A stretch of DNA of 57,791 nucleotides from an uncultured Candidatus Saccharibacteria bacterium (GCA_964355655.1 CAYHDT010000005.1:1-57791); one strand, 5' to 3'. Positions 538 to 57,540 are shown, numbered from the stretch's first letter. A program made the numbers and translations. The notes: generated by a model from the letters alone, not told the origin.

Positions 538-771
538 TCAGACTTCGCGGGCGACCGTACCGCCAACGAGTCGCGCGGTTTCTTCCGGCGTGGAACCGAG
601 CTGAAGCTCGCCTTCGCGCCGAAACAGTCCACAGGGCACTGGTGGGGAGGTCTCGCCCCAGTAGTGCATGTCGAGGACGATATTGCTGGGCAGGACGATA
701 GGGCCGCCCTTGCGATAGGCTTCGATCCCGACCACATAATTCTTACCTTCAAATTCGAAAGAGCAGTCCAT
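538..771 (-). CDS. hypothetical protein (77 aa)
   Basis: GGAG 7 nt before ATG; own TTGACA-17-TAAACT promoter (845-817); hairpin/U-tract terminator at ~480-518. Confidence 0.65.
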   Translation of the reverse strand: MDCSFEFEGKNYVVGIEAYRKGGPIVLPSNIVLDMHYWGETSPPVPCGLFRREGELQLGSTPEETARLVGGTVAREV

Positions 772-816
772 TGCTCGTCTCCGTCTGTGTCACGGTCAAA
801 AAAACTGTGTGAAAAC

Positions 817-845
817 AGTTTATCACATTTAAATATCTCTGTCAA
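817..845 (-). promoter_or_regulatory. sigma70-type promoter of 538..771
   Basis: TTGACA-N17-TAAACT on minus strand. Confidence 0.6.
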
Positions 846-938
846 CTGGTGCGCCGCATGGAACGAGATCGGAACTATTTTGAGCTATAAAACATAAACC
901 CCAGGCCGGATTGCCTGGGGTTGCGAACATTTTTTGCT

Positions 939-1334
939 TTAGTTCGCGGAGAAGGTGAGAGTGCCGGTTTTGGAGTCCAGATCGACACGAATGGTCTTGC
1001 TGAACATTCCGGCTTTCGACCAAGTGACGCCATTCAGAAACATCTTTTCGGTCGAGTTTGCGGCCATAACCTTGCGGATGGCTGCCAGAAATTCCGACTG
1101 GCTGATGATTGGCATCACCGCGTAACGATTGAACAGCTCGCGATGCGTGAAATGGACTTCCTTGTCCTTTTCGTCCGCAGCGACAATCCGGCAGGGGCCG
1201 GAGGCCCGTTCAGCGAAGCAATCCTGGATGACCGCGAGCTGTCCGTGCGCCGTGTACATTTCCCGCGGAGGGAAGTACGGGCGGAGCGAATCGAGGGAGC
1301 CCTGCACTGCAGGGTCGACTGGCTTGAACGTCAT
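939..1334 (-). CDS. hypothetical protein
   Basis: Track ORF 939..1397; start moved to ATG 1334 behind AAGGAAG; promoter TTGACA-17-TACTAT at 1443-1415; terminator AACCCCAGG..CCTGGGGTT at ~898-922. Confidence 0.6.
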   Translation of the reverse strand: MTFKPVDPAVQGSLDSLRPYFPPREMYTAHGQLAVIQDCFAERASGPCRIVAADEKDKEVHFTHRELFNRYAVMPIISQSEFLAAIRKVMAANSTEKMFLNGVTWSKAGMFSKTIRVDLDSKTGTLTFSAN

Positions 1335-1446
1335 GGCACTCTTCCTTTCGTTGCTCGAACTTCCGCCCAGGATACCGGAATGGGCATAATCGAGCAAAAC
1401 AGTATCCGTAAAAAATAGTACTCTATAAAAATTGATTTGTCAATAG

Positions 1447-1530
1447 TGCGCCGGGTTGGATTCGAACCAACGAAGTCGTGATGACAATGCGTTTACAGCG
1501 CATCCCGTTTGACCACTTCGGTACCGACGC
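1447..1530 (-). tRNA. tRNA-Tyr(GTA)
   Basis: GCGTCGG/CCGGCGC acceptor stem, CTGTAAA anticodon loop, long variable arm, GGTTCGAATCC T arm. Confidence 0.95.
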
Positions 1531-2128
1531 AGTGTTTCTGTCTGTACGATTCTATCAGATTAAGAACATCTCGCAACATTTTTTTGTCACTGTACCGTAA
1601 GTGTATCATTCCGTACTCCATCTTTCGGCCTTCGGCCCGAAAATCTTTTCTGACGTATGGCTTCGTAAATTGAGACATCGGGATTGAGAGCGTCTTGCTC
1701 CAAAATTTTGCAATGACCGGATAGTCTTGATTTGCGTGGCAGTATATGAAAGCTCTAAATTTTCGCTCGTTTAACTCATAACGATTCCTCAAAAATTTTA
1801 TGAATAGTTCAACCATTAATGGGTTGCTATTCGCGAAATCAATACCTTTTGCTTTTGCCGTCTTATACCCCTCTGCCCAGTAGAGCATTGCTCCGATTAT
1901 TTTTAGTTCTTTGCTATGTCGAGATCGGAGAGTAAATGAAGCAGGTTTTGCTTCGTACATGAGACGGTGTGATTCAGCAAAAGAACGCCGCGGTACAGTC
2001 GTTTTTCTCAGCACATAGGTAACCGCATCAATAGATACGCCGTAACTTTTTGCAACTACTCGCATCGGTTGTCCGGATTGATATAGGGTTCCCACTTTTT
2101 GCCATTCGGATTTTGGAATCGCGGACAT
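1493..2128 (-). CDS. HTH + LAGLIDADG-like (LYWAEG) protein, copy 1; 3' end overlaps tRNA-Tyr
   Basis: N-terminal HTH-like segment; IGAMLYWAEG-K ... FANSNPLM ... IYCH ... FWSKTL ... YG; last 38 nt lie in the tRNA. Confidence 0.7.
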   Translation of the reverse strand: MSAIPKSEWQKVGTLYQSGQPMRVVAKSYGVSIDAVTYVLRKTTVPRRSFAESHRLMYEAKPASFTLRSRHSKELKIIGAMLYWAEGYKTAKAKGIDFANSNPLMVELFIKFLRNRYELNERKFRAFIYCHANQDYPVIAKFWSKTLSIPMSQFTKPYVRKDFRAEGRKMEYGMIHLRYSDKKMLRDVLNLIESYRQKHCVGTEVVKRDAL

Positions 2129-4153: not shown

Positions 4154-4167
4154 AGTACAATCAAATT

Positions 4168-4961: not shown

Positions 4962-4981
4962 GATAGTTATGATTTAAATTT

Positions 4982-6144: not shown

Positions 6145-7029
6145 CTATGCCGGGGTATGTTCTTTGTCCGCAAGATAGGCGCGGATGGATGCGAGATAGC
6201 GTTCCATCCCATCGACCTGGTAGCCTTCGATTTTATCTTGTTCCCACCCGAATTTTACGACGGTTGAAACCGAAACAATGCTGCAGCCTTCGATACCACG
6301 CCGCTTAAGAGCTGCGTCGCCGCCAATGTCGTACCCGAGCACTGTCAGCCGATTGTGCACGGTATACGGCGCTCTGCGCAGCTGGTCGGTCGCTTCGGTA
6401 ACTTCCCGTTCGATGACCACGTGCGTAGCGCCAAGGGTCAGAGCTTCTTCCGGCGGCATCGGGTTGATGTGTTCGTTCTTTCCCGTGCCTTTGCTACGGA
6501 CACCTGTCGCAATAATGGTGCGGAATGTCTTCCGGCTTCGCGTACCTTCCAAATATCGGAGGAATTGCGCCGGGCACGTTATCGCAGAGATGCCCGCAAA
6601 TTCCGCTTTGACTTGCCGTCTCATAAGCCATTCAAAGTCTGCGTACCCGTACTCCCGCTTGCACTCCTCATCATTCTGGTCCGAGCGTATCGGAATCATG
6701 ACTATGGTCATTTGACCCGATAGAGCGCGAATCGATTTGAGAGTTTCACTGTTGACACCACTGTCAACACTTAAGTATTGCGGAGCATACGGACCCAATG
6801 CCCGGTACAGCTTGATGATGGAGACCATACGATCATGAACATCGGTGTGTTTGAGGTCAACAAATACATTGACCCGCCCGCCGATATTTTTAAGGATATT
6901 CTCCAACCCTTGCTTCAGGATAAGGTTACCGAGCTTAATTCCCCATACTCCCTGGATAGGGAGGATGTTGATGATTTGTTGACGCAACTCGCCGCTCGCC
7001 CGGTCCAGGCCGAGAATGATGCTGTCCAC
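6145..7029 (-). CDS. OMP decarboxylase (PyrF)-like protein fused to a C-terminal PyrE-like fragment
   Basis: GTG start behind GGAG; ILGLD, GIKLG, VDLKHTD, TGVR, GATHVVI; tail resembles the OPRTase C-terminus without the PRPP motif. Confidence 0.65.
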   Translation of the reverse strand: MDSIILGLDRASGELRQQIINILPIQGVWGIKLGNLILKQGLENILKNIGGRVNVFVDLKHTDVHDRMVSIIKLYRALGPYAPQYLSVDSGVNSETLKSIRALSGQMTIVMIPIRSDQNDEECKREYGYADFEWLMRRQVKAEFAGISAITCPAQFLRYLEGTRSRKTFRTIIATGVRSKGTGKNEHINPMPPEEALTLGATHVVIEREVTEATDQLRRAPYTVHNRLTVLGYDIGGDAALKRRGIEGCSIVSVSTVVKFGWEQDKIEGYQVDGMERYLASIRAYLADKEHTPA

Positions 7030-17927: not shown

Positions 17928-17958
17928 AGTTTTTGTAGAAGGAAACAGGGAGGACAGC

Positions 17959-18447
17959 ATGTCCAACGTCATTCAGGCTGAATTCTTCTTCGTCGGCAAC
18001 CATCTAAAAAGGGCCGTGCGGTTTACCGACTTGGGAGTTCTCACGTCCCTCGTCAGAAAGATCGAAAAAAATAGAACCAAGAGAGACGAAATTTGCGATA
18101 AATTTTCAACTTTCGGTCCTCTGAGGAAAAAGTATGAAACTTGGCGGGTGCGGCGCTTGGCCGGGAAGGCCATTCGGCTGAGAGACGACCTTCATCTCAC
18201 AGTATTGCGACGCATGACCCAATTGGCCGGTCGTCCCGAAGAGGTTGCGATTGAGCGGCTTAACCGTACATTCCGCCCTTCACGGTCTGGCGAGCTGATG
18301 TCCTTGTTGCGTAACGTAAAGGAGACCGAGCCTAATGCAATAAGGTCTCTGTTTTTCGTTACACATTGGCCCAAGATGTTCGTATTTGCCTACGGCGAAT
18401 GCGAACTATGCACCGACGATCCGCCTCAAGTGGCTTTTGGATTTTAG
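17959..18447 (+). CDS. hypothetical protein
   Basis: GGAGG 5 nt before ATG; TTGCCT-17-TAGAGT upstream; terminator after the stop. Confidence 0.65.
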   Translation: MSNVIQAEFFFVGNHLKRAVRFTDLGVLTSLVRKIEKNRTKRDEICDKFSTFGPLRKKYETWRVRRLAGKAIRLRDDLHLTVLRRMTQLAGRPEEVAIERLNRTFRPSRSGELMSLLRNVKETEPNAIRSLFFVTHWPKMFVFAYGECELCTDDPPQVAFGF

Positions 18448-18448
18448 C

Positions 18449-18476
18449 GCCCCGCACATGCGGGGCTTTTTCTTTT
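18449..18476 (+). terminator. intrinsic terminator
   Basis: GCCCCGC-ACAT-GCGGGGC followed by a T-tract. Confidence 0.8.
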
Positions 18477-18525
18477 AATGGGGATAGATCGTACCAAGGT
18501 ATTATATTTACGGTAGAATATAAGC

Positions 18526-19280: not shown

Positions 19281-19289
19281 CAAAAACAA

Positions 19290-19889: not shown

Positions 19890-19993
19890 TTTTACTTATC
19901 AAGGTTCCAACATCGTACCAAACACCCAATTAGCGTTTTTGGAAAGAAAAAAGCCAGCAACATACTGGCCTTTGGAAGAAGCTCCGATAGAAA

Positions 19994-20404
19994 TTATGCC
20001 GCCCTCGACATCAGCAATCCAATTTGGATGTCGATTTGATTCTCGCCGACGAATTGGTGATTGAACTCGCCAAACACTTCGCCGGCAACTTTCTTGATCA
20101 CCTCGGCGATTTTGTCGAATTGCTCTGGGTTGCCTTGCGCGACGATGAGTGTGGGCGTTACCCATAAGCGATCGATCCCAGGGCAAGATACAAGTCTGTC
20201 GAAGAAATTGAGAACCTTCTCGCCCTGCGTCTCGACGTGGGGCCGGTAGGTGCCCTGGTAATTTCCTCTGCCGAATTCGGCAGTGACCACCTCCCAAATC
20301 ATGGGAATCCGATAGGTCGGATCAACGATTTGAAAGGCCAGGGCTTGCTCTCCACTAAACCGTTGTGCCGTACCCTGTAACATGAGGGGTTTTAAGGCTG
20401 ACAT
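19994..20404 (-). CDS. hypothetical protein (weak NifU/Nfu N-terminal-like pattern)
   Basis: GGAG SD; TTGACA-16-TATAGT promoter; LVSCPGIDRLWVTPTLI segment. Confidence 0.6.
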   Translation of the reverse strand: MSALKPLMLQGTAQRFSGEQALAFQIVDPTYRIPMIWEVVTAEFGRGNYQGTYRPHVETQGEKVLNFFDRLVSCPGIDRLWVTPTLIVAQGNPEQFDKIAEVIKKVAGEVFGEFNHQFVGENQIDIQIGLLMSRAA

Positions 20405-20650
20405 GGGCGTTCTCCGTTGCGTCTGGCAGAACTATATATCGTTTGATGGATGTGTCAAAATGGTTCCAATACCCCAAGGGCACTGCGGTTTCAAAAGATT
20501 GATTACAATCTAAGAAACCGGGAGCATCGTACCAGACACCAAGCTATTGACAGTTTTATATTTTATAATATATTACTTTTTGTACGGTTCTTTATAACCG
20601 CCAACCCCAAACCATAGCCGATGCCTTGCGCTAGGCGATTGGAGGACTAC

Positions 20651-21277
20651 ATGGCTACCACAAGTGCTATGCTTTTGGCTGACGAAGGTTTTCTCAACAC
20701 GCTCCGCCGAAGTCTCGCTATCCGCTATATCCTGACGCCGGGCAATCCATCCGACATGCAATATCTCATTGTTGAGATTCTGGGGGCTACAGGCATTTCC
20801 GGGCAACCCTCATCGACGGACATCTTGTTCCGTTTTAAGAGCGGAATCCACCTGCATGATGACTTTAAGCCGTCTTCGCTCGAGTTTGACTCCGAACGAA
20901 GGTATGACCAGGTGATGCAGCGCCTGCAGGCCATGCTGGAAGACTGGGAAAGTAAGGCACCTACTCACCCATGGTGGGGTGATTGGCTCCAGTCAAAGCC
21001 CTTTGTCGGCGTGTTCTTGCTTGGCAACGGTATAAGGAGGGAGGTCGGGGCCGATAACCCGAATTTCCTATTCTATCACGGCGTGCTTGCGCAGCAGATT
21101 GCCCAGCACGCAAACTACTTGGAAGAAGTGTCGCAACACGAACGCTCTCTTGCGATAACGCAACAGCGCGACGCGTTCAAGGTCTTGGCGCGGCGGTTCG
21201 GCGCGTTTGCGGCTCAGGCTCAGCACGCGCACGTTGCTCAGACCATTGGGACCACCGATAAGCTCTACCAACTATAG
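20651..21277 (+). CDS. hypothetical protein
   Basis: GGAGG SD at 20641-45; terminator at 21286-21320. Confidence 0.65.
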   Translation: MATTSAMLLADEGFLNTLRRSLAIRYILTPGNPSDMQYLIVEILGATGISGQPSSTDILFRFKSGIHLHDDFKPSSLEFDSERRYDQVMQRLQAMLEDWESKAPTHPWWGDWLQSKPFVGVFLLGNGIRREVGADNPNFLFYHGVLAQQIAQHANYLEEVSQHERSLAITQQRDAFKVLARRFGAFAAQAQHAHVAQTIGTTDKLYQL

Positions 21278-21382
21278 TCGTCCGCGGCCGTCCGGTTAAC
21301 CCCGGGCGGCCTTTTCTTTTGCTACAATGGTTCCCTGGCCGGGCAGGCCAACATCGTACCAGACATCCAGCCAACAAAAAAC

Positions 21383-22029: not shown

Positions 22030-22839
22030 ATGTATCATCACGCGCGACTGTATGATTTGTCGTTCGTCTCTCCATCGAGGAGATCGTCTGGCAAACCACA
22101 ACTAGTCTTTACATTTGCACGAAAATATCTGAGCGAATGCATCGACCGCTTGGCAAAACTTGAAGATCAGGTAGATGTCAAGGCTTACTGCGGGCGTGAT
22201 ACCCGTTTTAGCCTCCCGGTACCGGACCTCTTTGGTAACACTGAGTTTGGATACGGAGGCTGCGGCCTTATGACCGACTCGGGCGACGAGGTGTCTTTGC
22301 TTCTTGAACTGAGCGAAGCACATTTGCACAATACGACACTCACGATTGGCTTGCTTACGCACACATTGTTGGGGGACTTTGCCGATGAGGCAAAAAACTC
22401 AAACCGTATGCAGCAGGTCGATCTTGAGACTTCTTGCACGCACGGACTGCATGGGCATTCGGTCGGCGGATATATCTCCGGCCAAGTACGCGAGTGGCTT
22501 CGCAAACAGTGGCACAAAGGCCCGAACGACAACTGGATGCACTGGGCCCCGATGCCTAAAGAAGTTATTACCGCCATGCGTCAAACGTGGAGCTCCTTGG
22601 CCTCTAAAGATTTGCGGAGATGGGCAAGTAACTGCGGCGGAAGCATCACGGAAGATGGTCGATTTATTCTCAACTGCTTCGGCAATGCTTGCGACCTCGC
22701 CATCTATCCTGACAATATGGCCGCGGACGAATATGATTCGGTGCGGTTTAGTTGCCACAATCTGGACGGTGCCCGACAGCAGCTAACGCTCTTGGCTGGT
22801 TTAGCTAAGCTCTGCGAACTGGCTCGGGCTGAAACCTAA
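22030..22839 (+). CDS. hypothetical protein
   Basis: AGGAGG SD; 269-aa ORF followed by a terminator. Confidence 0.7.
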   Translation: MYHHARLYDLSFVSPSRRSSGKPQLVFTFARKYLSECIDRLAKLEDQVDVKAYCGRDTRFSLPVPDLFGNTEFGYGGCGLMTDSGDEVSLLLELSEAHLHNTTLTIGLLTHTLLGDFADEAKNSNRMQQVDLETSCTHGLHGHSVGGYISGQVREWLRKQWHKGPNDNWMHWAPMPKEVITAMRQTWSSLASKDLRRWASNCGGSITEDGRFILNCFGNACDLAIYPDNMAADEYDSVRFSCHNLDGARQQLTLLAGLAKLCELARAET

Positions 22840-22976
22840 GGCTGTCTCTCACCGGGCGGCCTTTTATTTTGCTGCAATGATGCCCTCGACACATGCCGTT
22901 TTTGGCCGTTTGGAACTAGATGACTTTTTGGTAAGTCTGTTGTAATCTCTTTGCAGATTGAATCGGAGGGACTGAG

Positions 22977-23384
22977 ATGATACTCAACGCAAGGCAGATT
23001 GTCTGGACGCCTATAATCGGGAAAGATAGCGTGGCTGTGGCGCTTAATCCTGAGTTTGCGAAAGCCTGCAAAGGCTACGCGCTCGACGGGCAAGAAGGAC
23101 GGAGGATTGCCCAGCACGCATGGGAGAATGTGGGAAACAAAGGCCCTGTAACGCCGAGCAACTTTTTCCATTTTAGCGGCAACCTGCTGTTGCAGGGGGT
23201 GTACTACAAGCCGGGAGCCGGCGTCTGGCTTACGCTGGATACAACCACCCTCTCCGATGTCATGCGCCCTGTGATGTATCACGGCCATAACGAAGACCGC
23301 TCTGCCGACGACCGCCTTTGGTTGTTGCATGCCTTCGGCGAATGGGCTACTTCGGCAATAGCTTTATTGAATTGGCTTAAATAG
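22977..23384 (+). CDS. hypothetical protein
   Basis: GGAGG SD; followed by a terminator. Confidence 0.6.
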   Translation: MILNARQIVWTPIIGKDSVAVALNPEFAKACKGYALDGQEGRRIAQHAWENVGNKGPVTPSNFFHFSGNLLLQGVYYKPGAGVWLTLDTTTLSDVMRPVMYHGHNEDRSADDRLWLLHAFGEWATSAIALLNWLK

Positions 23385-23589: not shown

Positions 23590-23780
23590 TATGGAACAGA
23601 CCATCGCCGGCATTATTATGAAAAAAGAAATGCTTATAAGAAATCCTTGCCTATGGGACTGCGGTAAAATTTAAATAGGGACTCGAACTCGGATTTGATT
23701 AATTGGTGTTTTTATTGTATTGTCCTACGCGGATATCCCCGCCGTGTGGGCTACACGGAGCACCTTAACGGAGTAGAGCG

Positions 23781-24998
23781 ATGGGCAACCATCAGATACT
23801 TGCGCCTCAGCGCAAAGACCTTGATGCCGCCCACGCTGCGGCTCAGGGAATACGCATACCCCGAGTGTTTACCGCTTTCGAGGAGGGTCGTGACTTCGTA
23901 CTTCAACAGAACGGAAAGTTGATCATTCGCACCGAGCATCCGCTCGAGCGTGAAGGTCTTTCGGGGCTCAACATGAGCCACACCGTCTCGTTGGAGGATG
24001 TCGTCTTGCACGAACAAGAGGGCGGGCTTTTCGCGAGCTTCCGCGATTTCAACTCTGTCCTGCTCGATTACATGATGCAGGACTGGCACAAGAAACGCGG
24101 TAGCGCCAGGCACTACTGCGAACTGCACGGCCTCAGCCTCGATGAGTATGTGGCTGGCCTGACGCATTCCTATTGGGAGTATGTCTCCGGCTACAACCTC
24201 TATGTGGTGGCTGACCCGGTAATCTCGAACCGCTACCGCTTGTTCGCTGGCTGGAATGAGCTAAAGAATAATAGCCGCGAGTATCCCGTCACTTCGTACG
24301 ATGTGTTCGATGGCGAGGTGAAGCTGACCGGTGGTCGGACTCACGCGGCGGTGATCGAGAAGATCGGCGACATCTTGCGGCTCTACAACAAAGTCCGCGA
24401 GGTGTTTGGTCAGGAAATGTGCTGGGTCGTGGAGATGCAGCTCGCCGGCAATGGTGAATTGTACTTCCTCCAGCGCAGTGTCGGCCAGCTGTTTAAGCCG
24501 TGCGAGTGGTCGTTCGGACCGCCGGAGACCTGCCACTTCTTGGTGGGACATCAATACGGCTTTGGCGAAGTGCGCGGCACGACACCAAAAGAAGGTGTCG
24601 AGCTTAGCTTCCTGTTTGAGCGCGGCGTGCGGGCAAAGTGGTTTAAGGATTACGAGCACTCCGCAATCCTCGATAGTCATATTAGCTCGCCAGTCGTGGA
24701 GCAGAAGCGCGTTGCTTCGATGCCATACGTTCAGACTTACCCGCAGGGCCACGGTGATGGTGCGCGCGATCCGCACAGCTCAATCCTGCCTTTGGTGCGA
24801 GCGCCGTTGTACCTCTACTTGCCGGATTTGCACGACTTGCTCCCGCCCGAATTTGAGTGGGAACACGATCGGGTAAAGAAGGCTAAGAGGGAAAGGGTGC
24901 GAGACTGGTACTCGGATCCCAAGCGCATGCCCCAGATTACGCTTCATGTGCGATCGGACGGCAACGAGGCACGCGTCAATATACTGAAGATTGTCTGA
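23781..24998 (+). CDS. hypothetical protein with PEP/pyruvate-binding (ATP-grasp)-like motifs
   Basis: IIRTEHPLE..GLSG and VEMQL..NGELYFLQ; GGAG SD; terminator at 25012-25040. Confidence 0.55.
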   Translation: MGNHQILAPQRKDLDAAHAAAQGIRIPRVFTAFEEGRDFVLQQNGKLIIRTEHPLEREGLSGLNMSHTVSLEDVVLHEQEGGLFASFRDFNSVLLDYMMQDWHKKRGSARHYCELHGLSLDEYVAGLTHSYWEYVSGYNLYVVADPVISNRYRLFAGWNELKNNSREYPVTSYDVFDGEVKLTGGRTHAAVIEKIGDILRLYNKVREVFGQEMCWVVEMQLAGNGELYFLQRSVGQLFKPCEWSFGPPETCHFLVGHQYGFGEVRGTTPKEGVELSFLFERGVRAKWFKDYEHSAILDSHISSPVVEQKRVASMPYVQTYPQGHGDGARDPHSSILPLVRAPLYLYLPDLHDLLPPEFEWEHDRVKKAKRERVRDWYSDPKRMPQITLHVRSDGNEARVNILKIV

Positions 24999-25076
24999 TT
25001 ATAGTTAGACTCGCCCCGGCTTGCCGGGGCGTTTTTCTTTGACCTTTCCGGGGCTCGAATTGCTATACTTACAACC

Positions 25077-36503: not shown

Positions 36504-37706
36504 ATGGAACCTTTGGCAAACAAAATACGCCCAAAGTCGCTCGATGAGTTTGTCGGGCAGGAGCACTTGGTCGGCAAGGGGAAACCCCTGAGAGAAGCGA
36601 TTGAGGGCAAGCACCTCTTCAGTTTTATTTTATGGGGGCCGCCGGGGAGCGGTAAGACGACGTTGGCGCGCCTGTATGCCAATGCGCTTAATGCCGAGTT
36701 CCACGAGCTGTCGGCGGTCGACTCCGGCAAGGAGGATATTAAGCGGATACTTGATAAAAAAGGACAAATAAAATTCGATACAAGGCCGAAAGTTTTGTTT
36801 ATCGACGAAATACACCGGTTTAACAAAGCCCAGCAGGATTTTTTGCTGCCATTCGTCGAGCGCGGCGACCTCACGCTCATCGGAGCCACGACGGAGAACC
36901 CGAGCTTCGAGGTCATCGGTGCGCTTTTGTCCAGGACACAAGTGTTTGTGCTGGGTGAGCTTACCGAAAAAGAGATGGAAAAAATAATCGAAAGAGCATA
37001 TGACACATTGAACAAAAATGCGCGCCCCGTTAGAGATAAGTCCGCTAAGCGGACTGCCGACCGTAGTCGGATCTCTAACGGGGCGCGCGAGTGGCTTATC
37101 CAAGCGGCGCAGGGTGATGCGCGGCAGGCTATCGGAGTGTTAGAGAGCGCGCAGAAGCTGTACGGCGCGATAACCCTCGAATCGCTGAAGGAGACTATCC
37201 AAAGCAAGCACCTGCGCTACGATAAAAAAGGCGAGGAGCATTACAACACCATTTCGGCCTTTATAAAATCTATGCGAGCCTCCCAGCCCGACGCGGCGCT
37301 CTACTACCTGGCGCGCATGGTTGAGAGCGGGGAAGACCCTCTTTTTATCGCCCGACGCATGGTCGTGTTTGCCAGCGAGGATATCGGGCTTGCGGTGCCG
37401 ACCGCATTGGTGGTGGCTAACGCGGTCTTTCGCGCGTGCGAAACCATCGGCTACCCGGAATGCGCAATTAATCTCGCGCATGGCGTTGCCTATTTGAGCG
37501 AATGCAAAAAGAGCCGCTCTTCGTATGATGCGTACCTTGAGGCGTTGGATGACGTTAAAACACTAGGTGCCTTGCCTATCCCGATGCGCGTGCGTAATGC
37601 TCCGACGAAGCTGATGAAAAACTTGGGCTATCACAAAGGCTACAAATTTTACGATAAGGAGTCCTATCTGCCGGACAAGCTGAAAGGAAAAAAGTATCTG
37701 AAATAA
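36504..37706 (+). CDS. rarA: replication-associated recombination protein A (RarA/MgsA)
   Basis: GPPGSGKTT, IDEIHRF, ATTENP, ISAFIKSMR, SEDIG, PKS-like KKS. Confidence 0.95.
   Translation: MEPLANKIRPKSLDEFVGQEHLVGKGKPLREAIEGKHLFSFILWGPPGSGKTTLARLYANALNAEFHELSAVDSGKEDIKRILDKKGQIKFDTRPKVLFIDEIHRFNKAQQDFLLPFVERGDLTLIGATTENPSFEVIGALLSRTQVFVLGELTEKEMEKIIERAYDTLNKNARPVRDKSAKRTADRSRISNGAREWLIQAAQGDARQAIGVLESAQKLYGAITLESLKETIQSKHLRYDKKGEEHYNTISAFIKSMRASQPDAALYYLARMVESGEDPLFIARRMVVFASEDIGLAVPTALVVANAVFRACETIGYPECAINLAHGVAYLSECKKSRSSYDAYLEALDDVKTLGALPIPMRVRNAPTKLMKNLGYHKGYKFYDKESYLPDKLKGKKYLK
37025..37083. mobile_element. MITE-like in-frame insert in rarA
   Basis: 13-bp terminal inverted repeat CCCCGTTAGAGAT; CGCG on both sides; net 63 bp. 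Confidence 0.75.
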
Positions 37707-37745
37707 AAAACTCCGCGCGGGGCGGAGTTGCAGAGTCGTCGGCTT

Positions 37746-38132
37746 CTAGATAAACCGGCTGGAGAGCCAGTCGTGTGCCATATGCGCCACCAAACCGATG
37801 GGGAAAAAAACAATCGAGCCTAGAAAGGCCACAATCATGCTCTCAGAAAATCCGGCGTTTTGAGCGAGCCCGAAGATGAAGATGAGTGCCCCTGCAACTA
37901 TGGCTGCCACGAGTCCTGTCCGGAGCTGTTCTCTGAATCCTTCGTCCCATGAAAACATCCATCCACGGATTAACATGGCTATCAGAGACACTACTGACCC
38001 GAAGACAAATATTTCGAGGTAGACGGAAGCGGGGGATAGTGTCCGGATGAGAATATTTATTATGACCAGAAACAAATCAAGCAAAAACCCGCCGGCAAAA
38101 GCGGCAAGCAGCGTAACACCGAATCGGCGCAT
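37746..38132 (-). CDS. hypothetical multi-TM membrane protein
   Basis: AAGGAGG SD before ATG 38132; four hydrophobic segments. Confidence 0.72.
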   Translation of the reverse strand: MRRFGVTLLAAFAGGFLLDLFLVIINILIRTLSPASVYLEIFVFGSVVSLIAMLIRGWMFSWDEGFREQLRTGLVAAIVAGALIFIFGLAQNAGFSESMIVAFLGSIVFFPIGLVAHMAHDWLSSRFI

Positions 38133-38208
38133 AGCGACCTCCTTAAGATCTATTGCTGCATGTACAATATCTTTGCTTGCCAAAATGTCAAATAAAAATG
38201 CCGCCGGA

Positions 38209-38878: not shown

Positions 38879-39060
38879 TTATTTTGGCGGTTGCTGCTTC
38901 TCGAACTTGTGGACACGGATACATTTAGGGCCGAGCGGTTTATGGCTTGTGCCGCGGCCGCGACACTTGGGACATTGCTTCAACCTCTCGCGTATATCGG
39001 CCTCCCGGCCTTAGGCCTCAGGATATTGCCGCTTCCGCGGCATGTTTTGCATAGTGACAT
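38879..39060 (-). pseudogene. frameshifted small DnaJ-type CxxCxGxG zinc-finger ORF
   Basis: AAGGAG SD; CKTCRGSG and CPKCRGRG lie in different frames; 182 nt from start to stop. Confidence 0.5.
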
Positions 39061-49001: not shown

Positions 49002-51149
49002 ATGGCTAATTTTAAACTCTCGACCCACCACACGCCTGCCGGCGACCAGCCCAAGGCCATCGAGGCTCTGATACAGGGTCTTACGCGCGGCGAGCGGCAC
49101 CAAACCCTGCTGGGGGTGACCGGTTCGGGCAAGACTTTTACCGCGGCTAATGTTATTGCCGCGCTCGACAAGCCCACGCTGGTTATAGCCCACAACAAAA
49201 CGCTGGCCGCCCAGCTGGCGCAGGAGTACCGGGACTTTTTTCCCGATGCAGCGGTGCACTATTTTGTCTCGTACTACGACTACTATCAGCCGGAGGCGTA
49301 CATGGCGCACTCCGACACTTACATAGAAAAGGAGGCGCAAATAAACGAAGAGATAGAGCGCTTGCGCCACGCTTCGACGCAGGCCCTGCTGACGCGCAAA
49401 GATGTGATAGTAGTCGCCTCGGTATCCTGCATTTACGGCCTGGGGAGCCCCGAAGAGTATCGCAAAGTGCACCTCGAGCTGAAATCAGGCATCAAAAAGA
49501 ACCGCGCGGAGCTTATCCGCGAGCTCATCGGCGTGTACTTTGAGCGCACAAATGCCGACTTAACCCCCGGCACCTTTAGGGCATTGGGCAACAGTGTGGA
49601 AATAATGCCGACGGGCGAGCGGGTGCTGTACCGCGTCGAGTTCGCCCATTCGACGGGCTCAGGGCAAGAGGGCGAGCAAATCGGCAAACTGCGCATTATA
49701 GACGCGGTTACCCGCGCAGAAATAAATCAAGGACCGTCCTCCATTTTTTTGTTTCCGGCCAAGCATTACGTTACCCCTGAGCATGAGCGAGCGCGCGCCA
49801 TCGCGGATATTCGCGCGGAGCTCAAGGCCCAGCTCGCCAAGTTTGAGCGTGCGGGCAAGCTGCTTGAAGCCGAGCGTCTGAAACGCCGCACCAACTATGA
49901 CTTGGCGATGATACGCGAGGTGGGCTACTGCAACGGGATAGAAAACTATTCCCGCCATTTTGACGGCCGGAAGGCCGGCGAACCCGCACACTCTCTATTG
50001 GAATATTTTCCGCACAAAAAAGACGGCACGCCCGACTTTCTGACTATTATAGACGAGAGCCATGTAACGGTGCCGCAGATAGGCGGCATGTACGCGGGCG
50101 ACCGCGCCCGCAAGGAAACACTGATAGATTTCGGTTTCCGGCTGCCGAGCGCTTTAGACAACCGGCCGCTGCGGTTTGAGGAATTTGAGGAGCGGGTAGG
50201 GCAGGTTATCTATACGTCAGCGACGCCGGGGCCGTATGAAAAAGAAAAGAGCGGCAAGAATATAGTCGAGCAGATTGTCCGGCCGACCGGTCTTTTGGAT
50301 CCGATTATTGATATTCGCCCGGTTACCAGCGGCGCGGTTCTAAAGGACTCTCCTTTGGCTCCCCGTCTGAATTCCAAAGGTTTAGCCTTTGTTTCAAAGG
50401 CTAAACCTTTGGAATCGTATCAAGGACAGGTCCAGGATGTGATAGAAGAGGTGGCAAAAGTGGTCAAGCGCGGCAACCGCGTGCTTATCACCACGCTTAC
50501 CAAAAAGATGGCCGAAGACTTAAACGACTACTTGAAAGAGCGCGGCATAAAGTCGACTTACCTGCACAGCGACGTAGAGACGCTGGAGCGGATTGAAATA
50601 CTGACCAGCCTGCGCCGCGGCGAGTACGATGTGTTGGTGGGCGTCAACCTCCTGCGCGAGGGGCTCGACCTCCCCGAGGTGGAACTGGTGGCGATCCTCG
50701 ATGCCGACAAAGAAGGGTTTTTACGCAGCGAGGTATCGCTGATACAAACCATTGGCCGAGCCGCGCGCAACAGCGCGGGACGGGTTATTTTGTATGCCGA
50801 CCAGGAGACGCCTTCTTTAGTTAAAGCAGTGGGGGAAACCCGCCGCCGCCGTACTGCGCAGGAAGCGTACAATAAAAAGCACGGGATTACGCCGACCACT
50901 ATCATAAAAAATATAAAAGATATTACCGAGGAGCTCCGTAGCGAACATTCTAAAGCGATAGTTACTATGCTCGAGGTGGACAAAGAGCTGTATAAAAAGA
51001 ATCCGCGCCAATTTATCGCGGCTAAAAAACGCGAGATGGCCGAGGCGGTCAAGGAGCTCGACTTTGAGTCGGCAGCTCTTATCCGTGATGAGATTTTAGC
51101 CTTGACCGGAGGAAATGCTAAAAAGAGGCCAAAAAAGCCCAAAAAATAA
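49002..51149 (+). CDS. uvrB: excinuclease ABC subunit B
   Basis: [44 protein letters not shown]. Confidence 0.98.
50342..50415. repeat. three AAGG-N5-CCTT units in frame in uvrB
   Basis: AAAGG-ACTCT-CCTTT followed by a 21-bp inverted repeat at 50371-50415. Confidence 0.85.
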
Positions 51150-51188
51150 GGGTATTTTGGTAGCAAGGTTTAACCTTGCTATAAAAGC

Positions 51189-51217
51189 TTGACAAGAGTC
51201 AATAGGGGGTGTATGAT
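51189..51217 (+). promoter_or_regulatory. consensus sigma70 promoter
   Basis: TTGACA-N17-TATGAT. Confidence 0.75.
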
Positions 51218-51223
51218 AGTGTT

Positions 51224-51411
51224 CTGACGTCGGGGCCGTACGTTTTCGCAGGATGAGGTGCTCATAGCTTTGCTAGACCCTCTGATGTGATACAAGCGGC
51301 AGCTTGAGAGGAGCAATCCTTCCCCGACGTCCGCTCTTTCGTTCAGATGGCGCTCCGAGAGCGACATCTCAGCCCCGCAGCCCCTCACGACAGTGAGAGT
51401 GGCGCGGGGCT
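51224..51411 (+). ncRNA. candidate structured non-coding RNA, family unknown
   Basis: GACGTCGGGG/CCCCGACGTC closing helix of a branched domain, plus two further hairpins. Confidence 0.55.
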
Positions 51412-51477
51412 ACCTTATACCTAAACGAGGGTATAATTACCCTCAGATTCTAACGATCCAGCTCAGGGAGAGGGACT

Positions 51478-51576
51478 ATGTCTACTGGTGTAATAGCGAC
51501 GTTTGTCTTTCTACTTATCTTCTGCGGAGCGCTCATGACTCCGCCTAATACTCGCCAGCCGCGAGTTGACTCATGA
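51478..51576 (+). CDS. small hydrophobic protein (32 aa); not in ORF track
   Basis: MSTGVIATFVFLLIFCGALMTPPNTRQPRVDS; GGAG/GGGA SD. Confidence 0.5.
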   Translation: MSTGVIATFVFLLIFCGALMTPPNTRQPRVDS

Positions 51577-51670
51577 CCAGTCTTGAGTGGTTTGGCCTGG
51601 CGGATATCGTATCGCTGTTCGGGTCGCTGCTTTGGCCCGCCAGTTTTTGCAGAAGCTCCGGAAACTCCGG

Positions 51671-51714
51671 AGCCCGCCCGAACGTACGTTCAGTACGGGC
51701 GGGCTTTTTCTTTT
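51671..51714 (+). terminator. intrinsic terminator
   Basis: AGCCCGCCCG...CGGGCGGGCT followed by a T-tract. Confidence 0.8.
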
Positions 51715-51818
51715 TGTACTGCAAAATGTTATACTACTTGTGTACATAGCTGACCCCTCGGGCAATCCGTGGGGCTAGTCTGTTGCCGCCAAGAGCAAGC
51801 TCTTGGCCAATAAACAAG

Positions 51819-54413
<2,595 letters not shown>

Positions 54414-54421
54414 CTGCGCCT

Positions 54422-55696
54422 ATGCAGTTGGAGCAATTTAAAAAGAAAATGAAGCGCATCCCGGACTCTCCCGGAGTGTACTTCTTTTTAGGAAAGAACA
54501 AGAAGGTGCTCTACATCGGCAAGGCCACTAGCCTGCGCGACCGTACGCGGAGCTACTTTGCCGCCGACCTTGCGGCAAACCGCAACCCGCTTATTGTGCA
54601 GATGCTCCAAAAAGCGCAGACGCTGGAGTGGCGCGAGACCGACTCAGTGCTTGAGGCGCTGCTGCTTGAAGCTGCGCTCATACGCTCGCACAAGCCCCCG
54701 GCCAATACCGATCTTAAAGACGATAAGAGTTTTAATTATGTCGTCATTACACAGGAAGAGTATCCGCGGGTGCTGGTGATAAGAGGAAAAAATCTAACCG
54801 CGGCTCCTAAGGCCAAAAAAATATTCGGCCCTTTCCCGCACGGCCTTCAATTGCGCGAAGCTATGAAGCTTATCCGGAAGATTTTTCCATATCGCGACAC
54901 GTGCACGCCGTGCAACATTACAAGGCGAAACCTTGTTAACAAGGTTTCGCCTTGTAAACCGTGCTTCAACTACCAACTGGGCCTGTGTCCGGGCGTGTGT
55001 GCGGGGGCGGTGTCCAAGCAAGAGTACGGCCGCAATGTCCGCCACATTGTACTGTTGTTTGAGGGCAAGAAAAAACAGCTTATCAAGGCGCTTAATAAAG
55101 AGATGCGCGCCGCGGCAAAAACGGAGGAGTTTGAGCAAGCCAAAGAGCTCCAGCGGCAAATGTATGCGCTTCAGCATATCCAGGATATTTCGCTGATAAA
55201 GGAAGAATATCGTAGCCCCTCGACCGCTCTCGGGTCAATTCGGTCGGACCGAATTGAGGCATACGACATTGCGCACCTGCGGGGAAGTGCTGCGGTGGGC
55301 GTCATGGTGGTGGTAGAAGGCGGGGAGGCCGCCAAGGGGCAGTACCGCAAATTTAAAATAAAAAGTGCTAAAGCAGGCGATGACCCCGGCGCGCTGAAAG
55401 AAGTGCTTTCCCGCCGGCTGGGCCATGACGAATGGCCCCTGCCGCGCCTTATTGTCGTAGACGGCTCGACCGCGCAAATAAACGCCGCCCGCAATATATT
55501 GGCCGAGTACGGCATGGCTATCCCGGTCGTGGGTGTGGTCAAGGACGAAAAACACCGCCCGCGCAACATTGCCGGCGACCGCGGGCTGGTTAAAGAAAAA
55601 GAGCGCGAAATACTTTTGGCCAACAGCGAGGCACACCGCTTTGCGATAGGCTACCATCGCAAAACGAGCCGAAGGGAGTTGACGCTTGGTAAATAG
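54422..55696 (+). CDS. uvrC: excinuclease ABC subunit C (short form)
   Basis: GVY..LYIGKA.SLR.R, EALLLE, Cys cluster, IEAYDIAH, DG...Q. Confidence 0.93.
   Translation: MQLEQFKKKMKRIPDSPGVYFFLGKNKKVLYIGKATSLRDRTRSYFAADLAANRNPLIVQMLQKAQTLEWRETDSVLEALLLEAALIRSHKPPANTDLKDDKSFNYVVITQEEYPRVLVIRGKNLTAAPKAKKIFGPFPHGLQLREAMKLIRKIFPYRDTCTPCNITRRNLVNKVSPCKPCFNYQLGLCPGVCAGAVSKQEYGRNVRHIVLLFEGKKKQLIKALNKEMRAAAKTEEFEQAKELQRQMYALQHIQDISLIKEEYRSPSTALGSIRSDRIEAYDIAHLRGSAAVGVMVVVEGGEAAKGQYRKFKIKSAKAGDDPGALKEVLSRRLGHDEWPLPRLIVVDGSTAQINAARNILAEYGMAIPVVGVVKDEKHRPRNIAGDRGLVKEKEREILLANSEAHRFAIGYHRKTSRRELTLGK
54918..54957. repeat. perfect 40-bp palindrome in frame in uvrC
   Basis: TTACAAGGCGAAACCTTGTTAACAAGGTTTCGCCTTGTAA equals its own reverse complement. 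Confidence 0.9.
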
Positions 55697-55737
55697 GGTG
55701 TATACCTACGATAGATATAACCGGCAGGGAGTTTGCC

Positions 55738-56058
55738 ATGACAGCCGATGCAGTCTTTGTTCAACAGCCAAACGTGGAAGCACAACGCGCCGAATGGATG
55801 AAAAAACACATCGGTGTGTTTAAGACGGAATGCTATTGCAACTGTTTGCCCGGGAGGTTTGTGACGGATCATGCATCGATTCTCCCGTTTAACGTACCAA
55901 TGTCAGAGAAGATGTTTGGCCCGGGGCGGGATAATTACGGGCAGGATTCGTTTACTCCGCCTCAGTTGCAGCATGAGTACTATTGCGACTCCTGCGGCGC
56001 GATGTACCATCCGTCGGTCATCGAGAAATTCTACACGCCGCGCGAAAAGCGTAAGTGA
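55738..56058 (+). CDS. hypothetical protein with Cys pairs (possible Zn ribbon)
   Basis: GGAG SD; CYCNC and CDSC; terminator at ~56064-56090. Confidence 0.6.
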   Translation: MTADAVFVQQPNVEAQRAEWMKKHIGVFKTECYCNCLPGRFVTDHASILPFNVPMSEKMFGPGRDNYGQDSFTPPQLQHEYYCDSCGAMYHPSVIEKFYTPREKRK

Positions 56059-56108
56059 TCGCAAGCCGCCGAACTTTGGCGGCTTTTTCTTTGTTATATA
56101 CTGCATAC

Positions 56109-57086
56109 ATGCGGACAGTAGTAGCGGTATTGCGTGGCGGGCCTAGCAGCGAGTATGAGGTGTCGCTCAAATCGGGCGCTACCGTTTTGCGCGAGCTTGA
56201 TAAAGATAAATACGACGTGCGCGACCTTTTTATATCGCGGGGCGGCGACTGGCATTTGCACGGCGTTCCGGTATCTCCTGAAAAAGCACTTTTTGGCGTG
56301 GATGTGGCTTGGAACGCGATACACGGCGAATACGGCGAGGATGGCCGGCTGCATCATCTGTTGGACGCGCTTGGCGTGTCTTACACCGGTTCGGGCGCCG
56401 CGGCTTCGAAGCTGGCCTTCAATAAACAGCACACGAAAGATTTGCTTGCAAAAAACGGCATCAAGGTCGCCCACGGTGTTGTGGTAGCGGTCCCGCAAGA
56501 CGAAGGCGCGCGGGAACGGGTCGCGATAGATTTGTTTCGGACAATGCCGCACCCCGCTATAGTCAAGCCGGTCATCGGCGGCAGCTCGGTGGGCGTGTCG
56601 GTCGCAGAAAATTATCATGCGTTGGCGGAGGCTCTCGCGCGAGCTTCCGGGGTTTCGCCCGAGGTGCTGGTTGAGGAGATGATTCGCGGCAGGGAAGCCA
56701 CGGTAGGAGTCATAGATGGTTTTCGCGGGCATAAAACTTACGCCCTTATGCCGGTCGAGATAATCCCGCCACCAAAGCGTTTTTTCGATTATGAGGTTAA
56801 ATATAACGGCGAGACTATTGAGCGCGTGCCGGGCAATTTTTCAGACACCGAGAAAGCCGAGCTCGAGCGCGCGGCCAAGCTTGCCCACGAGCTTGTAGGC
56901 GCGGCGCACTACTCGCGCTCGGATTTTATTGTCTCGCGCCGGGGCGTGTATTTTCTTGAGATAAACAGTGCGCAGGCGGTCGGCTTGACCGAAGAGTCGC
57001 TGTTACCAAAAGCACTGCACGCAGGGGGCACTAAGCTCTCGGACTTTATCGACCATGTCATATCGCTCGTGCATAACAAAAAATGA
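56109..57086 (+). CDS. ddl: D-alanine-D-alanine ligase
   Basis: GGPSSEYEVSL.SG, HG.YGEDG, KP..GGSSVG, YEVKY, LEIN. Confidence 0.93.
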   Translation: MRTVVAVLRGGPSSEYEVSLKSGATVLRELDKDKYDVRDLFISRGGDWHLHGVPVSPEKALFGVDVAWNAIHGEYGEDGRLHHLLDALGVSYTGSGAAASKLAFNKQHTKDLLAKNGIKVAHGVVVAVPQDEGARERVAIDLFRTMPHPAIVKPVIGGSSVGVSVAENYHALAEALARASGVSPEVLVEEMIRGREATVGVIDGFRGHKTYALMPVEIIPPPKRFFDYEVKYNGETIERVPGNFSDTEKAELERAAKLAHELVGAAHYSRSDFIVSRRGVYFLEINSAQAVGLTEESLLPKALHAGGTKLSDFIDHVISLVHNKK

Positions 57087-57415
57087 CCAAACTGGCGAAG
57101 AAAAAATGCGTACCGTGCGAGGGCGGGGTAGAGCCGCTTAACCTCGACCGCGCGCAGGAACTGCTAAAAGAACTCCACTCCGATTGGATGCTGATAGACC
57201 AGTGCCGGATGCTAGCGCGCAGCTTTGTGCTTAAGGACTTTGTGCAGGCGCTTGCACTGACCAATAAAATAGGCGCCATTGCCGAGGCAGAACAGCACCA
57301 CCCGGATTTGACTCTCGGCTACGGAAGCCTCGGGGTCGAGCTGACCACACACGCTATTGGGGGCTTAAGCGAAAATGATTTCATTGTGGCGGCCAAGATA
57401 GACGAGATAAAATAA
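57083..57415 (+). CDS. pterin-4a-carbinolamine dehydratase family protein
   Basis: C.PCEGG, F.DF..A, AE.EQHHPD, THAIGGLSENDFI.AAKID. Confidence 0.9.
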   Translation: MTKLAKKKCVPCEGGVEPLNLDRAQELLKELHSDWMLIDQCRMLARSFVLKDFVQALALTNKIGAIAEAEQHHPDLTLGYGSLGVELTTHAIGGLSENDFIVAAKIDEIK

Positions 57416-57450
57416 AAAAAACCGGCAGCGAAGGATATCGCGGCCGGTTC

Positions 57451-57540
57451 TCAATGGAACGCTCCTGCAACAATGGCGGCTAGGAACGCTACCGCGATGA
57501 ACGTAGTAGCGTGAGGCCATTTCGACAACACACGAGTCAT
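57451..57540 (-). CDS. small single-TM protein (29 aa); not in ORF track
   Basis: GGAGG SD; MTRVLSKWPHATTFIAVAFLAAIVAGAFH; TTGACA promoter upstream; terminator AACCGG..CCGGTTTTTTT after the stop. Confidence 0.6.
   Translation of the reverse strand: MTRVLSKWPHATTFIAVAFLAAIVAGAFH

Follow-up and report, generated by a model that had tools for sequence, protein, structure and literature searches.

Shine-Dalgarno-preceded accessory genes in a Parcubacteria-lineage genome whose 16S rRNA tail lacks the anti-Shine-Dalgarno sequence

The window analyzed here is the whole 57,791-nucleotide (nt) contig CAYHDT010000005.1 of an uncultured bacterium deposited as Candidatus Saccharibacteria (GCA_964355655.1), and the system in question is a class of genes preceded by a Shine-Dalgarno (SD) motif. 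We found that this class comprises about 90-140 genes (10-15% of the genome), that it is drawn mostly from genes without a counterpart in a congener, and that its members are organized as self-contained units, whereas conserved genes carry the motif at background level. The tail of the genome's own 16S ribosomal RNA (rRNA) lacks CCUCC, the anti-SD sequence that is the canonical partner of the motif. The motif matches the canonical tail and is kept within gene families in lineages that lack the anti-SD. We give about even chances to the interpretation that this is a fast-evolving accessory class, partly resident and partly exchanged, in which the SD is under purifying selection and the motif is probably functional, its reader being something other than the 16S tail.

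The window corresponds to contig C5 of an assembly of 863 kb (G000; 24 contigs, 53% GC, rated 97% complete). Ribosomal protein uL1 (PF00687) was not found in this 97% complete genome, the same search being positive in 14/14 control genomes, and the public-record labels of homologues of the accessory proteins of the window read Candidatus Paceibacterota or Patescibacteria. The genome is placed in the Parcubacteria/Paceibacteria lineage without anti-SD and without uL1. An alternative genetic code was rejected, open reading frame (ORF) lengths being normal under table 11. Genes were predicted with a caller built here, which combines a dicodon model, greedy overlap resolution and tRNA masking, and which yielded 926 genes genome-wide and ~59 within the window. 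Throughout, a gene is termed conserved if it has a blastp or tblastn match in one congener, G018 (a single 754-kb contig, 62% GC, 99% complete), with which G000 has 468 reciprocal best hits at a median identity of 63%. Genus-wide comparisons cover 80 species including G000 (79 others). The conserved genes of the window include the housekeeping genes miaA, parB, relA/spoT, topA, dprA, serS, dus, holB, an ABC-F ATPase gene, mgsA, msrA, tgt, uvrB, uvrA, uvrC, and ddl.

Two classes of genes distinguished by their start regions

Over the whole genome, GGAG lies at spacers of 8, 7 and 6 nt before 13, 29 and 41 genes, respectively, against 4.4 expected per position, and GGAGG and AGGAG show the same positional behaviour. 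When starts were chosen on coding potential only, GGAG at a spacer of 5-9 nt preceded 82 of the 381 genes without a G018 homologue (21.5%), but only 11 of the 533 with one (2.1%; Fisher p=1.2e-22). Signal-refined starts gave 122/381 (32.0%) and 19/533 (3.6%; p=6.7e-33). Internal in-frame ATGs, taken as background, have the GGAG motif in 3.0% of cases and a -10 box in 2.4%. The initial annotation of the window had proposed that orphan genes form a separate expression class, and the two classes are borne out genome-wide: SD frequency in core genes is not equal to that in the others (2.1-3.6% vs 21.5-32%). The reverse test, performed in G018, gave 15.7-21.5% of non-conserved and 2.6-3.1% of conserved genes with an SD, and the split is also present in the window alone (10/22 non-conserved vs 1/37 conserved genes, p=9e-5).

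With leaderless-type genes removed, the split is kept in all strata of upstream gap (30-56% vs 6-9% at 61-150 nt) and is therefore not a by-product of operon position. An artefact of start choice was rejected, because the split is present with coding-potential-only starts and because SD-preferring calls lift conserved genes to just 3.6%. Contamination or chimeric binning was also rejected: SD genes are interleaved with core genes on most contigs, including all of those of at least 9 kb, and they are interleaved in the same way on the single 754-kb contig of G018. Orthologues of G000 and G018 tend to agree in SD status (odds ratio 9-12, p=0.005 to 5e-5).

The SD genes also stand apart in their architecture. 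An intrinsic terminator lies at most 90 nt after the stop codon in 64% of SD genes vs 12-20% in the other two gene classes compared, and a TTGnnn-16/18-TAnnnT promoter leaving a leader of 15-60 nt precedes 27% vs 5-8%; the observed leaders of SD genes are mostly 25-55 nt long. Their median upstream gap is 121 nt (46-62 nt in the other classes), 63% of them are separated from both neighbours by 40 nt or more (about 29% otherwise), and they are mostly monocistronic. The self-contained cassettes described in the initial annotation were thus recovered, as both these genome-wide statistics and scans of the window confirm units made of promoter, leader, SD, gene and terminator. Around the GGAG, the 5' side is A-rich and the next 3' base is G or A. 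SD-cassette promoters have a GCAGAC/CCAGAC-like motif 3-6 nt after the -10 box (for example upstream of 20404 and 38132, and at G000 C7 7562), which is kept in the promoters of eight orthologues and may represent a discriminator or a start-site element. No enrichment of membrane or signal segments was found in the SD proteins, and the idea of a secretion bias was rejected.

In addition, SD genes are written in a dialect of their own. In G000, the codons TTC, ATC, AAG, GTC, and CGG are used more and CGC, TTT, ATA, and AAA less, TGA stops amount to 33% vs 15%, and GTG starts to 16% vs 7%. In G018, the GC content at third codon positions (GC3) is 0.79 in SD genes vs 0.86 in core genes, with CGC down, CGG up and TGA stops at 37% vs 11%. 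As the same dialect occurs in hosts of 53% and 62% GC, it is a property of the SD class and not of the host genome.

A second start signal is frequent in the genome. TAnnnT at a spacer of 6 nt was observed 97 times vs 10 expected over the whole genome, and a -10 box 6-7 nt before the start is found in 26-35% of conserved vs 12-17% of non-conserved genes. A -10 box ending at this distance from the start codon implies that the mRNAs of many core genes are probably leaderless.

The 16S tail and the partner of the motif

A search of the genome with the Rfam small subunit rRNA models found nothing, because only the last ~45 nt of the 16S rRNA are left in the assembly, at a contig end, with the mature 3' end unmapped. 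A blastn comparison of intergenic DNA with G018 placed these nucleotides at the terminus of contig C3. The 3' end reads GCTGCTCGTGGAACAATTCAAATG and contains no CCTCC; in a longer reading it is ...AACAAGGCACGGGTAGCGGAAGCTGCTCGTGGAACAATTCAAATGAAATG, where an E. coli-type tail would be ...GGATCACCTCCTTA. As RNA, the tail ends in …GUGGAACAAUUCAAAUG, without CCUCC, and the canonical pairing partner of the SD is missing. All 16 tails of relatives that were read also lack CCUCC (eight congeners, four other families of the order, and four relatives of the lower-GC genome G096). The single 16S of G018 is without it, and in most congeners the 300 nt that follow the 16S contain no CCTCC. At the position of the former CCUCC, members of the order have CUUCC (G034), UUUCC (G038), AUUCC (relatives of G096) and AUUCA (this genus). 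The series resembles a gradual decay, in part by C-to-U changes with which wobble pairing would be retained.

Immediately beyond helix 45 (C3 82300-82734, reverse strand, and loci L003-L012), the tail segment CAAUUCA can pair with UGAAUUG ~45 nt downstream, enclosing a hairpin with the palindrome CUCGUACGAG. UGAAUUG is followed by a conserved GGCGAU, by a variable hairpin (with a GCAA tetraloop in most congeners) and then by GGAUGAUAGUGCUAA. The arrangement as a whole is shared throughout the genus and presumably serves in processing.

A subgroup of Parcubacteria without anti-SD and without uL1 is known, and SD helices are thought not to form in anti-SD-less lineages (Tsurumaki, Saito, Tomita, Kanai 2022, RNA 28:1041; PMC9297842). 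The present genome is like this subgroup in lacking both CCUCC in the 16S tail and uL1. It is unlike the published account, which in the portion of that source available to us concerns the rRNA loss only, in having a gene class with canonical SDs next to core genes that are in part probably leaderless. Background-level SD in conserved genes is what is expected from an anti-SD-less ribosome, and the SD class is not expected.

To describe the motif, we counted GGAG and its variants at spacers 6-7 in orphan (ORFan) genes whose starts had been chosen without reference to motifs. GGAG was observed 64 times vs 3.6 expected (17.6-fold). The observed and expected counts of the first-base variants are 4/2.7 (AGAG), 0/4.3 (CGAG) and 0/2.1 (TGAG), and that of GAAG is 2/3.4; GGAA (6/2.9) and GGAT (6/2.4) are slightly raised, and the count of GGGG (13/2.5) fits shifted GGGAG sites. 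With single-base variants near background, all four bases of GGAG are therefore required, including the first G, which faces an A of the genome's own tail. The enriched 5-mers AAAGG, AAGGA, AGGAG, GGAGG, and GAGGT together tile AAAGGAGGT, which is exactly complementary to the canonical tail. For the 20 nt upstream of the start, the duplex with the canonical tail is predicted at -5.13 kcal/mol in ORFans (-3.91 when shuffled) and at -3.14 kcal/mol in conserved genes (-3.33 when shuffled).

Several candidate readers of the motif were considered and rejected. For a hidden RNA with the canonical tail GATCACCTCCTTA (at most two mismatches), the matches lie in coding DNA or over tRNA genes, or are the reverse complement of an SD motif that precedes a gene. 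The conserved intergenic blocks correspond to rRNA fragments, 5S rRNA, tRNAs, LOOT RNA and repeats, none of which is suggestive as a reader. The LOOT RNA (Rfam RF03000, 76 bits) lies at about 32306-32418 of contig C7; two conserved blocks, C21 2895-3284 and C7 11919-12315, have no Rfam match. A pyrimidine tract that follows a helix in the internal transcribed spacer (ITS; GGCGAUCUUCC) was rejected because its sequence is not conserved in congeners and it is one strand of a hairpin, and its duplex energies are barely off those of shuffled controls. CCUC inside the 16S was rejected because conserved sites are found just in helix 26 and other helices, with no hint of accessibility.

Conservation, gene flow and competing explanations

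The motif was followed through four gene families. G000_0523, an 86-amino acid (aa) SD gene on contig C7, has orthologues in 8/80 species of the genus at one syntenic locus, where the flanking core genes are 72-99% and the protein 47-81% identical. GGAG at a spacer of 5-8 nt is kept in 8/8 of these loci while leader length and sequence vary, and all eight have a -35/extended -10 promoter and a CAGAC-like start region. As far as the sequences go, this is vertical descent, in which the motif was preserved while its surroundings changed.

The 405-aa gene at 23781-24998 has 12 metagenomic homologues with 37-85% identity. GGAG stands 7-8 nt before the start in 8/8 upstream regions examined, and most of the homologue loci keep the promoter and a 5' hairpin, the stem of which differs between homologues. 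One homologue is found in genome G096, and the 16S of four G096 relatives is without CCUCC. In the window, the leader hairpin is CCGTGT-GGGCT-ACACGG (23742-23758) and has no Rfam match. The homologue loci L054, L055 and L111-L114 (37-59% identical) have a hairpin in the same place with stems GCGT/ACGC, GTGGGT/ACCCAC and CTAGGT/ACCTAG, which could be a 5' mRNA-stabilising or regulatory stem-loop.

The family of the HExxH protein encoded at 38209-38802 numbers at least 202 members in Paceibacterota, among which HExxH, E and D residues are invariant, and promoter and (A)GGAG are kept in 5/6 loci. The AlphaFold model of the window protein (pLDDT 96.6) has weak fold matches to minigluzincins (selecase, abylysin) and to IrrE. 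Some of the homologues adjoin HTH_3 or Peptidase_S24 repressor-like genes, and this neighbourhood suggests an ImmA/IrrE-like regulatory protease.

Finally, a thyX-like gene is present in 12/80 congeners, and AAAGGA or AAAGGGA is kept in 9/12 of them. In G045 the whole leader is deleted and the -10 box lies 9 nt from the ATG, an apparent switch from an SD-led to a near-leaderless gene inside one family. The thyX-like/dcd/tmk nucleotide-metabolism cluster (G000 C4 9501-12320) is found in just 12/80 congeners.

The cassettes also behave as clean insertions between core genes, as the initial annotation had pictured them: the flanks of 26 of the 68 SD-containing runs are adjacent in G018, and for 27/68 of these non-orthologous runs G018 has one to three other genes instead. 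Two examples lie in the window. The first, 10108-10377, is a clean single-gene indel whose flanks (relA/spoT-like and topA) adjoin in G018. The second, 37746-38802, is a clean insertion of two genes (37746-38132 and 38209-38802) when compared with G018 and with 29 loci of congeners. At those 29 loci, no homologue of these two cassettes lies downstream of mgsA, and at many of them the same slot holds other SD-preceded ORFs on the opposite strand. The SD islands of contig C2 encode HATPase_c_3, AAA, DUF6638, NMT1_3 and DUF2491 proteins. A phage donor, which had been suggested at the outset, is not supported by the window, where 0/10 SD proteins match PHROGs; a defence origin fares no better (0/10 match PADLOC). 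In the HExxH family, three relatives lie on IMG/VR contigs. A purely foreign origin is not supported either, as at least one family, G000_0523, is syntenic and vertically inherited in eight congeners and has kept its SD.

Two gene architectures coexist in the genome. Of the core genes, which have no SD, about a quarter to a third carry the -10 box that implies leaderless mRNAs, and the rest lie in tightly packed operons. The SD genes are fast-evolving, patchy and mostly unnamed and occupy variable slots between syntenic core genes; each is an autonomous unit that has a sigma70-type -35/-10 promoter, a leader and an intrinsic terminator, with AAGGAG(G) at a distance of 5-8 nt from the start codon. 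The SD, which the evidence suggests is kept by purifying selection in this lineage without anti-SD, is probably functional. The motif would have been kept since it may still act in translation initiation as a 30S-recruitment signal for leadered mRNAs, with a reader distinct from the canonical 16S tail, and the accessory class would have been given a separate initiation channel, possibly under separate control. The initial annotation had spoken of a different initiation mode; the two classes stand, but the genome's own 16S is without anti-SD, so that the question becomes who reads the sites. One answer would be a protein, or some RNA distinct from the 16S tail, that recognizes AAGGAG(G) at the classical spacing and serves the accessory class only, translation of the core genes (leaderless or coupled) and of the SD-led accessory genes being separately controlled. 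We put this second channel forward tentatively, with the chances somewhat against it.

Several observations weigh against a selected motif with its own reader. Among the candidates checked (own 16S tail, intergenic RNAs, CsrA, 16S-internal CCUC), no reader was found. Duplex energies with the own tail are -1.85 kcal/mol for ORFans and -1.76 kcal/mol for conserved genes, no better than those of shuffled controls; a CsrA-type GGA-binding regulator was rejected, PF02599 being absent; and there is no intergenic RNA with a canonical-like tail. Leadered conserved genes rarely have the motif (4-12%), which is odd if the host machinery reads GGAG efficiently. The distribution can be patchy, as the 405-aa gene is absent from the 79 other species of the genus (1/80), and 2 of the 12 thyX-like orthologues have leaders without SD. 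This patchiness, the dialect common to the two hosts of 53% and 62% GC, the turnover of slots, and some SD clusters formed by families known mainly outside the Candidate Phyla Radiation (CPR) all fit gene flow from SD-using donors. Every gene start, moreover, derives from the simple heuristic caller made for this analysis.

In the main rival explanation, the motif is a hitch-hiking relic. The SD genes would then come from a mobile pool that is passed around among Patescibacteria and other bacteria, most of them with a normal anti-SD. SD, promoter, terminator and codon dialect would be maintained in those donors, and the SD would be inert here, where the genes would be translated poorly or without use of the SD. 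Patchy distribution, clean indels and slot turnover are consistent with it, as are the dialect common to both hosts (CGC down, CGG up, TGA stops 33-37% vs 11-15%), the DUF2491, DUF6638, HATPase_c_3 and NMT1_3 proteins of the SD islands (families typical of other phyla), the match of the motif to the canonical and not to the own tail, and the three HExxH-family relatives on IMG/VR contigs. About half of the Parcubacteria retain the anti-SD (PMC9297842). However, all tails read in the order, and those of the lower-GC lineage that bears a homologue, are without CCUCC, and the donors would therefore be distant. Furthermore, the identities of G000_0523 roughly track those of its flanking core genes, and GGAG is kept in 8/8 loci despite diverged leaders, where a neutral 4-mer should not survive. 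We consider a pure gene-transfer relic rather unlikely, and less likely than a selected SD.

A selected motif might also be read by residual pairing, in which the degenerate tail (AUUCA here; CUUCC, UUUCC and AUUCC in sister families) would pair weakly with GGAG by G-U wobble. The series of tails in the order is in line with this, as the C-to-U changes keep wobble with G. However, at most three pairs are left in the genus (G-C, A-U, G-U), and the own-tail energies given above equal shuffled controls in both gene classes. GAAG and GGAA, better partners of UUC, are at background or raised about twofold, and GGAG is raised 17.6-fold. A G is strictly needed at the first position, opposite an A, and the A-rich 5' extension fits the canonical UU, not the AA of the own tail. 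Residual wobble is thus not the explanation suggested by the variant counts and own-tail energies, and we regard it as improbable.

It is very improbable that the SD genes are ordinary and a canonical anti-SD does exist, for instance on an additional rRNA operon that the assembly lacks or in a mature 3' end that extends further. The short, contig-terminal 16S remnant and its unmapped 3' end leave some room for this; on the other side, the sole 16S end present is without CCUCC, the single 16S of G018 lacks it and G018 has the same dichotomy, no CCTCC follows the 16S within 300 nt in most congeners, and conserved genes have SDs at background level, unexpected with a working anti-SD.

Equally far-fetched is the idea that the cassettes are built for a foreign canonical translation system, such as that of a partner cell of a presumed episymbiont once nucleic acid has been transferred, comparable to the eukaryote-type signals that Agrobacterium T-DNA genes carry: the complementarity to a canonical tail absent here, the universal promoter and terminator types, the dialect independent of carrier GC, the fast-evolving ORFans without excess secretion signals and the motif conserved under vertical inheritance are consistent with it, but there is no known transfer mechanism, the cassettes are scattered singly and not on a transferable element, and some SD genes are plainly cell-autonomous enzymes (thyX-like, tmk, a Nudix protein).

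Cassettes of the window and comparison with known systems

The initial annotation had listed 14 starts with a GGAG-type motif in the window, on the minus strand (771, 7029, 20404, 38132, 38802, 39060, 57540) and on the plus strand (10108, 17959, 20651, 22030, 22977, 23781, 55738). GGAG, GGGAG or GGAGG was found 5-8 nt upstream of ATG or GTG, on the correct strand, at 14/14 (Table 1). Ten of the 14 are independently called gene starts. Starts 17959 (162 aa) and 22030 (269 aa) are plausible; the caller missed the former because of its atypical composition and shortened the latter. Starts 39060 and 57540 open only micro-ORFs, of 26 aa and 29 aa, respectively. A promoter scan recovered TTGACA-type promoters (10-11 of 12 consensus positions) before 20404, 20651 and 38132, and a terminator scan found terminators after 18447, 19994, 21277, 22839, 24998, 37746 and 38209, in agreement with what had been noted.

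The genes had also been described as impossible to assign, which is mostly correct: in a Pfam scan of 11 flagged starts (17959 and the two micro-ORFs left out), 9/11 have no match at E <= 0.01 and 0/11 have one at the curated cut-off. The description goes too far for 6148-7029 and 10108-10374, which have weak matches to OMP-decarboxylase and DUF6377, respectively, and for the HExxH protein of 38209-38802. The 6145..7029 gene is related only weakly to its distant OMP-decarboxylase family, its homologues carry PF00215, and it has no homologue in G018.

Table 1. Features of the window discussed in the text, with positions counted from its first nucleotide.
Feature	Coordinates	Strand	Details
SD cassette gene, 77 aa, no family	538..771	−	GGAG 7 nt before ATG at 771; promoter TTGACA-17-TAAACT 45 nt upstream
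SD cassette gene, 294 aa	6145..7029	−	GGGAG 8 nt before GTG at 7029; terminator after stop
SD cassette gene, 89 aa	10108..10377	+	GGGAG, 7-nt spacer; TTGACA-17-TACACT promoter, 55-nt leader
162-aa ORF	17959..18466	+	GGGAGG 6 nt upstream; terminator 18449-18466; in 43% GC island near tRNA-Gln
SD cassette, 136-aa gene	19949..20458	−	TTGACA-16-TATAGT (20458-20431); GGAG 7 nt before ATG at 20404; terminator 19973-19949
SD cassette, 208-aa gene	20547..21311	+	TTGACA-16-TATATT (20547-20574); GGAGG; ATG 20651; terminator 21286-21311
269-aa ORF, no family	22030..22863	+	AGGAGG 5 nt before ATG at 22030; terminator 22838-22863
SD cassette gene, 135 aa, no family	22977..23384	+	GGAGG 7 nt (GGAG 8 nt) before ATG
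SD cassette, 405-aa gene 23781-24998	23742..25031	+	Leader hairpin 23742-23758; GGAG 23770-23773, 7-nt spacer; terminator 25012-25031
Core-class example, mgsA/rarA-like AAA+ gene	36504..37706	+	No SD; TAnnnT -10 box 6 nt before ATG
SD cassette, 128-aa gene	37709..38191	−	TTGACA-16-TATTGT (38191-38164); AGGAGG; ATG 38132; terminator 37729-37709
SD cassette gene, 197 aa	38200..38802	−	GGGAG 5 nt before GTG at 38802; terminator overlapping stop
26-aa micro-ORF, CxxCxGxG, putative gene	38983..39060	−	AGGAG upstream
Core block uvrB-uvrA-uvrC-(cassette 55738)-ddl	49002..57086	+	Core genes without SD
SD cassette gene, 106 aa	55738..56058	+	GGGAG 6 nt upstream; terminator after stop; between uvrC and ddl
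29-aa hydrophobic micro-ORF, putative gene	57451..57540	−	GGGAGG upstream

The cassettes at 19949..20458 and 20547..21311 are divergent to each other. The 162-aa ORF lies in an island (17900-19281) of 43% GC in the 53% GC genome, which adjoins tRNA-Gln (19210-19281) and holds two ORFs, 17959-18447 (GGGAGG, own terminator) and 18526-19224, the end of which overlaps the tRNA-Gln gene. The 26-aa CxxCxGxG micro-ORF is antisense to a non-conserved N-terminal extension of msrA, the annotated start of which (38891) probably lies too far upstream, given that the PMSR domain starts at residue 75. Among the core genes, the mgsA/rarA-like gene, with its leaderless-type start, is conserved in 69/80 congeners, and -10 boxes precede the ATG of uvrB and that of ddl by 6 nt. 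Positions 2243-4153 (+) encode a 636-aa protein with a T4SS_pilin domain and a C-terminal SLT lytic transglycosylase domain, and with a leaderless-type start. An Rfam scan of the window for known RNAs gave tRNAs only and no known cis-regulatory RNA.

SD:anti-SD pairing is the textbook mechanism of start-codon choice in bacteria, and the lineage described here has dropped one partner and appears to keep the other under selection on a defined gene class. In full-text literature searches, no account of SD-bearing gene classes was found for Parcubacteria that lack the anti-SD. Should the motif be functional, an SD can be read by something besides the 16S tail, which would be a new initiation mechanism, and the genus would offer a natural system for studying roles of SD sequences other than pairing. 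Should it have no function, its persistence gauges a very high gene flux into ultra-small genomes and flags recent imports. In either case, gene finders that train one ribosome binding site model will mis-call starts in such genomes, and the SD/terminator signature is a cheap marker of the flexible gene pool of Patescibacteria, which is rich in unnamed families.

Several known systems share features with these cassettes. Phage morons are autonomous units of promoter, gene and terminator inserted between genes. The units described here are similarly self-contained, lie in either orientation between conserved genes, and have an atypical composition and presence/absence behaviour. Unlike morons, they are associated with no prophage and no PHROG matches, they are flanked by housekeeping genes (parB, topA, uvrABC, ddl, mgsA, msrA), and some of them are vertically inherited. 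Integron cassettes are promoterless, end in attC, and stand in an array next to the integrase gene intI. Like them, the units here are single genes, mostly without known function, with turnover at fixed slots; unlike them, they have their own promoters and terminators and are dispersed, and no attC-like repeat or integrase was noticed, though no systematic search was made.

As for initiation, leaderless-rich bacteria (Actinobacteria, Deinococcus; 'group C' of GeneMarkS-2) have a canonical anti-SD, with SDs in use on their leadered core genes. The genome analyzed here resembles them in the -10 box 6-7 nt upstream of a large share of its genes and in its mix of leaderless and leadered genes, and differs in that the anti-SD is gone and SDs are found on accessory genes only. 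In Bacteroidia and Flavobacteria, CCUCC is present but occluded, and few genes, such as rpsU, bear an SD. Here, too, most genes are without SD and a special set retains it. In contrast to Bacteroidia, CCUCC has been replaced through substitutions, and the SD set is large (about 10%) and made up of orphan accessory genes.

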